64,000 nucleotides of DNA. Origin: Candidatus Sulfomarinibacteraceae bacterium. GTDB taxonomy: Bacteria > Acidobacteriota > Thermoanaerobaculia > Thermoanaerobaculales > Sulfomarinibacteraceae. Position numbers: made by a program. Of this stretch, positions 42,001 to 45,000 are shown one piece after another. Position 1 is the stretch's first letter; each line of letters begins with the position of its first letter. The stretch covers positions 576,001 to 640,000 of the forward strand of contig CAWCLO010000004.1 in NCBI GenBank assembly GCA_963796455.1, given 5' to 3'.

Positions 42001-45000
42001 ATCTCCCCAGGGTGCCCAGGCACCCACAGAATTGCCGGCGTCTTCATGCCTCCCTGATGGTGGGAGGAGGATCCTCGATCCCGTAGACATGTGCGGGCCC
42101 CAGCGACCCGGGGAACCGTTCGCGGAGGACGGTTCGGGCTTTGTAACAGAGGTGGCAGGCATCCACATAGCTGTCCTCGTGCGGGAGGTCGAAGCGACGA
42201 ACCAGCTCCGCGGGGCCGCCTTCCACCAAGGCGCTGATGATGGGGTGGGTGTGGGGATCGTAGAGATCGAGCATTTCGCTCAGCGAGGAGTCCGTTTCCA
42301 GATTCCCGAGCAGGAGGCCTTGGCACAGATGAACGTTACCCCAACCGTCCACGTGAACCCGCCCGGGGTCGATGAAATCCTCGTCGGGACACTGGTCGAA
42401 CTCAGACCACGGCCGGCGCGGCAGATCGGCCGTGAGGTTGACCGCGGCGCGGCCGCGGAAACGCACCGAACCGCCGATGATGGGCAGGCCCTTCTCGTCG
42501 GGAGATTCACACACGGCTGGAGGATCAATCGTGATGACCACGTCGTCGAGCCCCAGTTCCTTGGCCGCCTCAACTGCATAACCCGGCCTCGGGTCTTCAA
42601 TATCTCCCGCGTGAAAGGTGTCGGATGAGACGCTGAGGTTTCCGACCTCGAGCTCGCCAAATGGTTTGAGCCAGAGGGCGGCATCCGGTTTCGCCGTGGC
42701 CCAGTAGCAGTTGCTCACCACACCGGTGGAAAAACCGCGTTCTCTGGCCAGCCGGATTCCTTCCAGCAGCAGTGGGTAGAAGAGAAAGGGCTCTCCGCCC
42801 TCGAAGTAGATGTTGTCGATGGTGCCCAGTTCTGCGGCCTGATCGAGCACGTCGGTCATGGTCTCGAGAGAGATGGTGCCGCCGGCACGGGGGCTCGACC
42901 AAACAAAACAGTGATCGCACTCATGGGTGCATTGATAGCTGAGCAGGAAGTGGATTCCGGTCAAGGGCATCGTCGCCTCCCGATCCCTGTCATACGGTCA
43001 TTGATCGAACCCGAACAACACACTCTGGATCGGCCGGGTGAGGATGGCGCCCTGCCGAAGACCGAGGTAGAGACCGCGCGGCTCCGGGTTTTCTCTGCGG
43101 TGGATTTTGGCTTCTTCTTCTGACCAGAAGAAGACACTCTTCATTCAAAAATCGTCCACGATGCACGGAGACTCGAGGTCGGGTAGATTGATGAGCGGTA
43201 TCACGAAGAGCGGCTTTTCCGCCGGCGGGTGCACCGTGAATCGAAGCTCGCTGTCGAGCTCGAAATGGATCGGCCGGCCGCTGACCGAACACTCGGATTC
43301 GATCTTGAACCTCAGATCTTTTTCCAACAGTCGCCCTTGCACGAAGGGCGTCGCCATGGCGTCGGCCGCTCAAGCGGCCGAGAAGGCGGCACCTCCGTCG
43401 ACCCGGACTTGATGGGGCGTTTCGTCCGAGGTCACCGGGTAGGCCCAGTTGACGTCCTCGCCGCCGCGCCGGCAGAGAAAGGTCATCCGCCGTTCAAGCT
43501 CGTCGAGGATCTGCAGCACTTCCTCGAGCGGCAGATCGAGCTCTGTCGCGAAGACCTCTGGAGCGATGGCTTCCAGCCGGCGCGGGATCTCGCGCACCGC
43601 AAAGTGCTGCACCCGGCGCTGATCGGGTTCGAGGGTCGGGCGGCTTCGCGAGCTTTTTGGTGTCGCGTTTGACCATCGGGCGGAAGATGAACTCGGGTAC
43701 CGGGCAACATTCGTTTTCCGATTCCGAGAAAGACTCGTTCGAACATCGCTGCCTCCTCAGTGCACCGCGGCGTTGAATTTGACCCCGGCGAGATCCGGCG
43801 GATGCCCTGCCGATAGCGATACTTCGGATAGCCGAGGATGAGTGAGGTCAGGACCCGGTGGTCCTCTGGGATGCCGTACCGGCGCGAAGCTCCTTGGACC
43901 GCTCCACAACCGGCGGGATCATCCCGATGATGGTGGTGCCGAGACCGAGGGAGAGCGGCGGCCAGCATGGCGTGGTGGCACACCAGATGCGCGTTTTCCC
44001 CGTACGACGCTGTCCGAACGATTGGCGTGGAAGATCATCAGCGCCGGCGCACCGTACAGATATCGATCCGAGCCATCCTCCCGGTACGACTGATTGGCGC
44101 GGGTAGCCGAATCCACCACATGGTCGCGAAGCTCGCCGTACACTTCAGGGCCGGTCATGAGGCGGATAACGGCGCGCCCGATGGGGGTGGCGAAGTTCTT
44201 GACCATGCCTTCGTAATGCTCGACCAGAGCTCGGAGCAGAAAATCCAACTCGCCGGGCTCGTCGATGACCACCACCTCGGTGGTGTGGGGCGGGAAACCC
44301 ATGGGCGCGGTCGCCGCAGCAGTGAGGATCTTGTCGATGTTCTCCCGAGCGACGGGTTTGTCCTTGAAGAGGCGAACGCTGCGCCGTGTTCGCAAGAAAT
44401 CGTGAAATTGTTCGAAACCGAAGACCGGCTTTTGGAGCCGATCAAAGTCCGCGTCAGGGATTGTCCGCAGCTGCAGCGCCTCGGTGGGGCAGACTGCCAC
44501 GCACTGGCCGCAGACGATGCAGGTCTCGGCGCGGCCCTCCACCGTTGACGCCTTTTCCTCGACCATTTCAATAGCGCCCTTGGGGCAGACCTCCGCACAC
44601 AAACCATCGCCGTTGCAGTTTTCGGTGTCGACAACATGCAATTGCTTGACCATCATTCACCCCGTTTTCCGACCTGTGCGTCTCAATGGGCGCGATGTAC
44701 AGATCACGTCTTTTCTGCGTGCACGATACGTTCAATGGCCATCCAGCCGAGCTCGCGGCCGGTGGGTTGCACATAACGTTCGTCGAGTTCGTCGTAGCCC
44801 AGATGCTCCACAGTTTTCCACCCGTACTCGCCAACGAAGACATCGATCAACTCCGGTCTTATGCCGTAATGCCATATGGGGTCTTTCCCACGCATCTTCG
44901 AATAGAGATAGTCGTGGCCATATGTGTTGCTGCCGTCGATGAAGTCTTGAGGGACATAGGTGAAGACCAGCCGACTCCCTTTGGGTGCGGTGGAGAGGAA

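Follow-up and report, generated by a model that had tools for sequence, protein, structure and literature searches.

On the minus strand of the window, by which we mean the whole 64-kb stretch of DNA analysed and whose positions are used throughout, lies one gene for a MerB-fold protein of ~249 amino acids that gene callers have cut into pieces. Two in-frame UGA codons occupy the positions of MerB's two metal-binding cysteines, and genes of this kind form a large family in bacteria from oxygen-free habitats. At the family level, SelB-directed insertion of selenocysteine (Sec) at both metal-binding positions, directed by a hairpin after each UGA, is almost certain. To the whole statement, that this MerB-fold protein has Sec at both positions and acts as a MerB-like lyase, we assign a probability of about 0.48. 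By analogy with MerB, its likeliest job would be that of a carbon-metal lyase, with methylmercury as the first candidate substrate. The initial annotation had called it an organometallic lyase; the fold and the sites agree with that name, whereas the activity it implies is presumptive.

The main frame (43642-42998), which encodes a winged-helix and a MerB lyase domain, comprises 214 codons, ends at a TGA stop (43000-42998) and is open through both UGA codons, as expected if, as had been claimed, one MerB-family protein is read across them. UGA 1 (43370-43372), with flanks reading AA-U-AADAMATPFVQG, aligns with the cysteine of AWCALD in R831 MerB, the Cys96 position. UGA 2 (43145-43147), with flanks reading DDF-U-MKSVFFWSEE, aligns with the first cysteine of QSFCCH (FCSH in the C160S mutant 3f2g), the Cys159 position. 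These residues are U91 and U166 of the 214-aa product P0001 and U125 and U200 of an intact relative; the earlier numbering, U81 and U156, denotes the same two residues. Between them lie the codons for the equivalents of the proton-relay Asp99 (43361-43363; D94 of P0001) and of the structural Cys117 (43289-43291; C118, aligned with SSHCAATG of MerB). The 5′ part of the gene (43645-43746, ATG at 43746) encodes an N-terminal extension characteristic of the family, which is split here between two frames (MFERVFLGIGKRMLP and PVPEFIFRPMVKRDTKKLA) and which in the intact relative is predicted to form a beta-hairpin (residues 5-16) and a helix (18-33). The ATG lies 5 nt downstream of a Shine-Dalgarno-like GAGGAGG (43752-43758), and a purine-rich GGAG(G) occurs at a similar place in four aligned relatives. 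A promoter and terminator scan of 41800-46400 gave counts at the level of shuffled sequence, and no tRNA was found within the window.

Two extra bases near the start of this copy are probably assembly errors. The first lies in a short C/G run at 43702-43706 (place 43704) and the second at 43642-43650 (place 43644); both are absent from all four aligned relatives and from the run X4 contig, while raw reads of run X14 gave no match to this stretch. An intact 124-aa database piece, searched by tblastn, is spread over three frames here and matched a single frame in 16 of 17 other family loci (L016 gave no match). The 5′ frameshift reported in the initial annotation is present, but there are two rather than one, and about 35 codons at the start are affected rather than ~45. 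A rival explanation, independent of which function holds, accepts the family as real and takes this copy for a decaying pseudogene in an accessory island. Both +1 bases are close to the 5′ end, and the two upstream genes have one frameshift each, compared with 1 of 51 other sampled genes of this genome, as decay would predict. However, all four breaks are frameshifts within 1.4 kb, and in the MerB-like gene each of the two is one base within a short C/G run; the main frame is free of premature TAA or TAG; the same gene has frameshifts at other places in other assemblies (L015, L024 and L028); and both hairpins and the Shine-Dalgarno sequence are intact. Synonymous changes also prevail, with 73 synonymous and 25 non-synonymous codon differences from the nearest metagenome relative (L110) and synonymous changes ahead in all three segments. 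Decay of this copy is possible, though rather unlikely.

On the Pfam MerB profile PF03243 (cut-off 27) the 214-aa product, read with U as C, reaches 54.8 bits (37.7 bits in the genome search). Its scores on the MerB profiles NF033555 and PRK13239 are 38.1 and 35.1 bits against cut-offs of 200 and 193, on which a positive control (L204) reached 228.7 and 231.5 bits, and its score on the SaoL profile NF040728 is 51.9 bits against 140. The earlier statement that MerB and SaoL profiles are hit below cut-off holds for the last three profiles. Two weaknesses it had conceded have been removed. Fold prediction, reported as failed, now yields an AF2 model with a pLDDT of 90.2, which matches MerB structures over nearly its whole length (TM 0.56-0.74; best Foldseek E 1e-11) at 16-19% identity to solved MerB; MerB and MerB2 account for all 11 Foldseek matches of the predicted structure at E<=0.001, and a VIA structure comparison gives Z 21.7 and 19.8 to MerB, with the next match at Z 9.7. 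The PDB match, described as weak (E 0.11), reaches E 2.9e-5 to MerB2 (5c17) with a family-only profile; that profile is needed, as a single-sequence PDB search gave no match at E<=10.

Passages of two papers give the MerB signature as Cys96, Asp99, Cys117 and Cys159 (PMC8261052, PMC10114901). In the alignment these four positions are filled by U, D, C and U, in agreement with the claim that both UGAs fall on metal-binding cysteines and that the aspartate is kept. The protein therefore resembles MerB (EC 4.99.1.2; PF03243; PDB 3F0O/1S6L, MerB2 5C17) in its fold, its Pfam score and its occupied signature positions, Asp99 and Cys117 being retained. It differs from MerB in having UGA, presumably Sec, in place of both catalytic cysteines, no equivalent of Cys160 and an N-terminal extension of ~35 aa, and in lying outside any mer operon, almost never with merA in the genome, in a separate clade and far under the NCBIfam cut-offs.

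Both UGA sites are highly conserved. TGA stands at both in 77 of 79 GTDB genome loci and in 77 of 80 metagenome loci, the other three of which are cut by contig ends. Among the genome loci, site 2 is TGA in 79/79, and site 1 is TGA in 77, TGC in one (L050) and frame-shifted in one (L046). The Asp99 codon specifies Asp in every genome locus but the frame-shifted L046 (78/79) and in 79/79 covering metagenome loci, and the Cys117 codon specifies Cys in 78/79 and 80/80, respectively. In two taxon samples not picked by motif, all full-length matches were U/U (8/8 and 21/21, 29/29 in total). Cys/Sec intermediates are L050 and seven of the best 150 representatives, which have Cys at site 1 and end at site 2. 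Each UGA is in frame and aligned with a cysteine of homologues, and homology runs on past it, the pattern expected of a bacterial selenoprotein.

A bacterial SECIS element is a hairpin just 3′ of the UGA with a G early in a short loop. SECIS-like hairpin 1 (43332-43350, minus strand; CGCCCUU-CGUGC-AAGGGCG) and hairpin 2 (43113-43134, minus strand; core UUCUUCU-GGUC-AGAAGAA) have loops, CGUGC and GGUC, that begin 26 and 19 nt past UGA 1 and UGA 2. Synonymous sites in hairpin 1 are nearly frozen (Pro CCC, Val GTG and Gly GGG each in 77/78), and four of its seven pairs show changes on both sides (0/500 shuffles). Codons of hairpin 2 are likewise fixed (Phe TTC 78/78 and 77/77, Ser TCA 75/78, Glu GAA 76/78); 99% of its cells are paired (0/500 shuffles), and two pairs show changes on both sides (11/500 shuffles). 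Folding energy did not differ significantly from that of shuffled sequences (z -0.01 for hairpin 1, z -1.69 for hairpin 2), so the case for SECIS elements is carried by conservation. SelA, SelB, SelD and tRNA-Sec, which had been reported, were all found in this genome together with HgcA and HgcB, the five proteins scoring above cut-offs. Sec machinery was also found in all 50 distant carriers tested (selA above cut-off in 45, selB and tRNA-Sec in the other five), against a high selA background of 176/201 genomes of one class and 73/76 of the family.

The proposal of a double-Sec MerB family is borne out far more widely than had been known. We recovered the same count of homologues, in 21 of 76 family genomes, and 397 matching stretches in GTDB genomes with at least eight phylum-level labels. 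In our tree the family forms its own clade, separate from both MerB and SaoL. The available portion of the SaoL paper (NF040728; Haft and Gwadz, bioRxiv 10.1101/2022.07.06.499078) describes another MerB-fold selenoprotein found in anaerobes, in which Sec takes the place of Cys159, Asp99 is retained and gene callers shorten the product, and which has Cys at position 96, a single Sec in a CU motif and a nine-gene SAO locus. The present family, in contrast, has two Sec, F-U or Y-U rather than CU, and no conserved operon, and its product lies far below the SaoL cut-off. A true SaoL control (L227; 175 bits, E 7.8e-52) falls outside its clade, and the best E of the SaoL profile against the 15 members of set A1 was 6.8e-15. 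A SaoC search gave no match in this genome and likewise none anywhere, the SaoL-bearing G535 included.

A second double-Sec MerB-fold family occurs in Desulfobacterota, with the motifs WFGQ-U-xFE and YS-U-STMNFFRSEEH (e.g. L228, L236-L257). It has UGA at the same two sites and a hairpin at each, and is found in the same phylum and sometimes the same genome; it differs in having Glu for Asp99, no N-terminal extension and ~19% identity to P0001. Because it forms a separate clade (nine rows, 100/98) among Cys-bearing relatives, double Sec probably arose at least twice, as read from an unrooted tree with a weak backbone. In a catalogue of 119 prokaryotic selenoprotein families the only MerB-like entry is the one-Sec SaoL, and a search of titles, abstracts and passages found no paper on a two-Sec MerB; Haft and Tolstoy 2025, bioRxiv preprint supplements and BSepDB lay outside its scope and could hold such sequences. 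Whatever the substrate, one large two-Sec family, and the second beside it, are added to the selenoprotein catalogue.

If the protein acts as a MerB-like lyase, an organometal cation, methylmercury first but possibly other alkyl or aryl metal(loid)s, would bind Sec96, and Sec159 would then close a Se-metal-Se clamp, weakening the bond between metal and carbon. The conserved Asp99 would deliver a proton, releasing R-H. Sec is ionised at neutral pH, so this proton would come from water via Asp and not from residue 159. As a MerA partner is missing, sulfide or small thiols may take over the bound metal, or turnover may be slow; Hg-Se binding is tight and could block turnover. The low identity to MerB, the lack of mer genes nearby, the missing Cys160 equivalent and the majority of carriers without hgcA all count against the lyase reading.

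The gene stands alone outside any SAO locus, as the initial annotation had it, next to radical SAM, nitroreductase-ferredoxin and methyltransferase genes, and its neighbours are indeed not conserved, 159 loci being without a conserved operon. Their functions are of a general detoxification type (methyltransferases, nitroreductase, hydrolases, MarR). Within 213 family loci (1.27 Mb of flanks) no match to merA, merT, merP or hgcA was found; MerR-family genes of ~30% identity lie near eight of them, and the two scanned were far under the MerR cut-off. A plasmid search gave weak matches (E 0.06-0.5), two of them on annotated merBA genes. The reported co-occurrence with hgcAB holds for this genome, but hgcA is absent from the majority of carriers (32 of 50 distant carriers, with 18 having it, and 16 of 21 family carriers). 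The idea of a tight hgcAB partnership gives way to a loose link to hgcA that is in part an effect of genome size. Carriers exceed non-carriers in hgcA frequency in all three samples (5/21 vs 4/55 in the family, 3/7 vs 11/193 and 11/20 vs 77/280; Mantel-Haenszel OR 4.0), but the enrichment shrinks once size is controlled: a model that includes genome size gives an OR of 3.7 (p 0.03; family and class pooled, kin not independent), and among carriers of at least 3.5 Mb in the phylum sample no enrichment is visible (9/18 vs 4/8 in a small reference set).

These surroundings also bear on a double-Sec MerB-fold enzyme with a non-mercury substrate, performing diselenide redox chemistry or cleaving C-As, C-Sn, C-Se or C-S bonds in organics, with the family-specific N-terminal hairpin and helix shaping a pocket for an organic substrate. 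It would account for the absence of mer genes, the xenobiotic-type neighbours in variable islands (in 12 of 111 distant loci the gene immediately upstream is MarR) and the patchy distribution, skewed to large genomes (21/301 and 8/201 sampled genomes). The scaffold has evidently diversified, the second family having Glu for Asp99 and one form Gly, and in the available portion of their paper Haft and Gwadz argue that Sec at the site leaves the mercury substrate of SaoL uncertain (10.1101/2022.07.06.499078). Yet Asp99, needed for protonolysis, is invariant in the double-Sec family, and the hgcA enrichment persists weakly in two of the three samples when size is controlled, which makes a non-mercury substrate rather unlikely.

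More improbable is a high-affinity Hg(II)/methylmercury sink or metallochaperone, stoichiometric or single-turnover, protecting the many other selenoproteins of anaerobes. The two Se ligands and the carriers' use of Sec suit this role, and MerA, which would unload the metal, is missing from 49 of 50 carriers (merA above cut-off in one, with no more than 25 candidates per genome scored and MAGs incomplete) and was not above cut-off in this genome. A passage of PMC10114901 states that MerB keeps Hg(II) until MerA takes it, which we count in favour of a sink. Nevertheless, a whole catalytic triad including Asp99 and a full fold under purifying selection are more than a simple sink needs.

The protein is a candidate for methylmercury breakdown without oxygen. 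It also offers a naturally occurring Se/Se counterpart of an S/S active site that has been studied in depth. A genome survey requiring Cys96, Asp99, Cys117 and Cys159 found, in the portion available, no hgcAB in merB-only genomes (PMC8261052). The double-Sec family is invisible to such Cys-based filters, lacks merA and includes the hgcA-bearing carriers counted above, which makes it a concrete protein to test. In 301 genomes of one phylum, two TGA occur in 50 of 63 MerB-domain matches. That double-Sec MerB-fold proteins are more common than any other MerB-type protein in bacteria of anoxic habitats, forming a hidden MerA-independent methylmercury demethylation route, often in hgcAB cells, is a tentative idea with the odds against it; merB surveys would overlook genes that are cut at UGA and do not pass Cys-based filters.

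That the UGAs are not Sec codons at all, but are recoded as Trp or are true stops yielding separate small proteins, has a negligible chance of being right: W stands at both sites in 19 of 20 longer database matches (protein records only) and 100 of the 120 matches listed are ~124-aa pieces ending right before UGA 1, but TGG occurs at neither site in the DNA of 159 loci or 29 sampled matches, on which Trp recoding is rejected, the gene's own stop and those of many homologues are TGA, this genome carries both tRNA-Trp(CCA) and tRNA-Sec(UCA), and both UGAs coincide with catalytic cysteines (TGC in L050) and are each followed by a conserved hairpin. The W-containing proteins come from contigs only 0.9-1.6 kb long, as would fit a gene caller picking a TGA=W code.

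The main frame of the MerB-like gene, read directly on the minus strand, runs from 43642 to 42998 (stop TGA 43000-42998) and contains two in-frame TGA codons, UGA 1 at 43372-43370 and UGA 2 at 43147-43145. With selenocysteine (Sec, U) entered as Cys, the 214-aa read-through product P0001 scored 54.8 bits on the Pfam MerB model, twice the cut-off of 27, and fell far under the NCBIfam cut-offs for SaoL, the one-Sec MerB-like lyase (51.9 of 140 bits), and for MerB (38.1 of 200 and 35.1 of 193 bits). The true start is an ATG at 43746 (minus strand) preceded by GAGGAGG. The first ~35 codons are split across two other frames by one extra base near 43704 and another near 43644; neither occurs in any of the four aligned relatives or in a ~90% alike contig of the X4 sequencing run. 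The N-terminus lies in a single frame in 16 of 17 other family loci tested, the last (L016) giving no match, and against the nearest metagenome relative, L110, 73 codons differ synonymously and 25 non-synonymously. The two upstream minus-strand genes, a nitroreductase-ferredoxin (43783-44656) and an LCM-type methyltransferase (44710-45571), are also frameshifted, once each, near 44010 and 45005; when 53 sampled genes of this genome were compared with relatives' proteins, three were frameshifted, two of them these neighbours. A local assembly fault, rather than gene decay, is the probable origin of the frameshifts in this copy. The MerB-like gene and its two neighbours together hold four breaks inside 1.4 kb, versus one of 51 other sampled genes.

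A scan of GTDB genomes returned 397 related stretches and a metagenome scan at least 577, the best 80 of each being retained; part of these loci come from genomes already in the Sulfomarinibacteraceae homologue set. Among the 79 genome loci from the best 80 of 397, 77 were TGA/TGA at the two sites, one was TGC/TGA (L050) and one was frame-shifted; the best 80 of at least 577 metagenome stretches comprised 77 TGA/TGA loci and three cut by contig ends, with TGA at the site retained. TGG occurred at neither site in these 79 genome and 80 metagenome loci. Since the scans selected loci by motif and ordered them by similarity, taxon samples were also examined: U/U was present in 8/8 full-length matches among 201 genomes from the class to which G082 belongs (presumably Anaerolineae) and in 21/21 among 301 genomes from G090's phylum (apparently Desulfobacterota). 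Other carriers are labelled Acidobacteriota (nearest, 67-82% identity), Myxococcota, Spirochaetota, Bacteroidota, Gemmatimonadota, Actinomycetota and Binatota. Protein databases hold the gene in pieces: 100 of 120 listed matches stop just before UGA 1. Of the best 150 representatives, 93 likewise stop there, and seven others have Cys at site 1 and stop at site 2. Nineteen longer database proteins, derived from 0.9-1.6 kb contigs, carry W at both sites, most simply explained by a gene-calling code in which TGA is W. One genome (G063, contig C22) has two copies ~1.3 kb apart, L012 and L023, with two TGA in each.

The codons that follow the UGAs are nearly frozen across 78 genome loci. After UGA 1, PFVQG is written CCC in 77, TTC in 76, GTG in 77, CAA in 73 and GGG in 77, whereas an equally invariant upstream Gly uses all four codons (34/24/12/8); one search motif constrained the amino acids PFVQG and left the codons free. 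After UGA 2, codons of FFWSEE are likewise nearly constant (TTC 78, TTC 77, TCA 75, GAA 76). In 75-row alignments, where a few metagenome rows hand-picked as variant favour covariation, SECIS-like hairpin 1 (CGCCCUU-CGUGC-AAGGGCG) has both sides changed in four of seven pairs (0/500 shuffles). SECIS-like hairpin 2 (UUCUUCU-GGUC-AGAAGAA) is 99% paired and has two pairs changed on both sides, among them a switch from U-A to C-G by which Trp becomes Arg; its shuffle counts are 11/500 by pairs and 0/500 by cells. One alignment drew 74 rows from 126 distinct sequences and added L025, the other drew 75 from 138; most rows are genome loci. Pairing dropped to 31-75% in slid controls, and hairpin folding energy by itself was unremarkable. 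The genome under study carries selA, selB, selD and tRNA-Sec; among 50 distant carriers tested (L049-L098, 50 of 62 such loci), selA was above cut-off in 45 and the remaining five had selB and tRNA-Sec, on a high background of Sec genes. The existence of a double-Sec MerB-fold family is well supported.

An AlphaFold2 model of P0001 from a 15-row alignment reached pLDDT 90.2 and pTM 0.88. Foldseek gave 11 matches at E<=0.001, every one of them MerB or MerB2 (TM 0.56-0.74, identity 17-19%), and a wide structure search gave Z 21.7 for 5c17 and 19.8 for 3f2g, followed by winged-helix domains at 9.7. The intact relative L002 (249 aa; pLDDT 93) adds an N-terminal hairpin and helix, and its structural matches were again MerB only. 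A profile built from the family alone matches 5c17 at E 2.9e-5. A wider alignment, whose E-values are not independent as it took in MerB-like outgroups, equates U91 with the Cys of AWCALD (Cys96), D94 with Asp99, C118 with Cys117 and U166 with the first C of QSFCCH, which is Cys159 because the C160S mutant reads FCSH. These are the four MerB signature residues in the available text of PMC8261052 and PMC10114901.

MerB clamps R-Hg+ by Cys96 and Cys159 while Asp99 protonates the carbon (PMC10114901, available text). As the protein keeps the MerB fold and has Asp99 and two chalcogen ligands at the MerB places, MerB-type chemistry is the best guess, and we put the probability that the double-Sec protein is a lyase of the MerB kind at about 0.48. 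Selenium would raise affinity for trace organometals in anoxic, sulfidic settings. The main difficulty for the lyase reading is the absence of MerA combined with the strength of Hg-Se bonds: merA above cut-off was not found in the genome under study, and in the 50 distant carriers it occurred once. These same two points keep alive the less likely alternative that the protein acts on another substrate or by other chemistry, and the somewhat less probable one that it serves as a stoichiometric sink. That the UGAs do not encode Sec is very improbable. The one merA carrier, L050 (G078), is also alone among the 50 in having TGC (Cys) at site 1; it keeps the site-1 hairpin sequence and is a single case.

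No conserved operon emerged among 159 loci, and merA, merT, merP and hgcA were absent from 213 flanks. In 111 distant loci the commonest neighbour cluster was a MarR regulator immediately upstream (12), followed by AraC-type regulators, hydrolases, dehydrogenases and ABC ATPases at 8 apiece, some of them not adjacent; these names, MarR excepted, were read from sequence by eye. The MerB-like gene is flanked in the window by the nitroreductase-ferredoxin and a radical SAM gene (42044-42970, minus strand), with methyltransferases around. The radical SAM gene starts 27 nt past the MerB-like stop with its own GGGAGG, matches the YydG family best in NCBIfam, far under cut-off, and is absent from the conserved neighbour clusters.

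The genome under study has hgcA and hgcB on a different contig, and hgcA occurs in 18 of 50 distant carriers. With centre genomes excluded, carriers versus non-carriers had hgcA in 5/21 versus 4/55 (family), 3/7 versus 11/193 (class) and 11/20 versus 77/280 (phylum), a pooled odds ratio of 4.0. Carrier genomes are larger than non-carriers; a logistic model including size (195 of 200 class genomes, those of known size) gave odds ratios of 5.4 (p 0.08) for the family sample, 2.9 (p 0.17) for the class and 3.7 (p 0.03) pooled. In the phylum sample, hgcA was as frequent in large carriers (9/18) as in a small reference set (4/8). As kin are not independent, the association is no more than a hint. 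A link to anaerobic methylmercury breakdown is a testable hypothesis. An in-frame TGA (PPPS-U-GTG) lies shortly 5' of the HgcA match (L191; contig C6, 148040-149029 and upstream); although outside a CU motif, it may belong to the N-terminal extension with Sec that has been described for HgcA.

In a 64-row IQ-TREE tree with a weak backbone, 41 family rows form one clade (support 100/99, bootstrap not fully settled) that leaves out a true SaoL (L227, a long branch; 175 bits, cut-off 140) and a true MerB (L204; 231, cut-off 193). The sites are lost (S, G or E) in a few database rows inside the clade. Six database proteins near the family (P0128, P0129, P0134, P0198, P0204 and P0206) lack both Cys/Sec sites and the Asp, P0128 and P0129 branching at the family base; they are likely a non-catalytic offshoot. 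A Pfam MerB search of the 301 genomes of the G090 phylum gave 63 matches in 48 genomes, with two TGA in 50, one in 4 and none in 9 by manual count. Of 30 loci inspected, all 20 with two TGA had them at both catalytic sites, and 17 of the 20 belong to a second, separate family, in which Glu replaces Asp99 (WFGQ-U-xFE ... YS-U-STMNFFRSEEH) and hairpins follow the UGAs. Loci of this type include L228:1447-2112 (minus strand), L236, L237, L239-L242, L244-L246, L249-L255 and L257. This Glu family is common in the Desulfobacterota sample and at times shares a genome with the first. A third two-UGA form (L226:1489-2160, minus strand) has Gly at the Asp99 position (YAM-U-AGG ... DGF-U-PRVQFF). L203:1480-2103 (minus strand), L230:1141-1716 (plus) and L232:1312-1821 (plus) have the MerB fold with Cys at 96, UGA at 159 and no CU motif; L203 and L230 are under the SaoL cut-off, and all three may be further one-Sec branches outside the catalogues.

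SaoL has Cys99, Asp102, Sec162 and a nine-gene locus (Haft and Gwadz, bioRxiv 10.1101/2022.07.06.499078, available text). Table 1 of a 2026 review holds a single MerB-like entry, with one Sec, and the families of Haft and Tolstoy 2025 as tabulated there do not include MerB (PMC13188914). The available portions of PMC9312934 and of deep-Sep (PMC12013277) contain SaoL-type entries only; in the two deep-Sep representatives, Cys occupies position 96 and CU position 159. BSepDB, which collects families reported earlier, names no lyase in its available text (PMC13326102). Family members reached no NCBIfam model of June 2026, and nothing on a two-Sec MerB was found in the full-text literature searched, mostly outside subscription journals. 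Elsewhere in the genome under study, ARAGORN made six scattered tRNA-Asp(gtc) calls of 90-95 nt (C1:256404, C1:372006, C7:143691, C10:210759, C10:275636 and C10:353452), possibly a repeated tRNA-like element; the copy on C8 is 77 nt.
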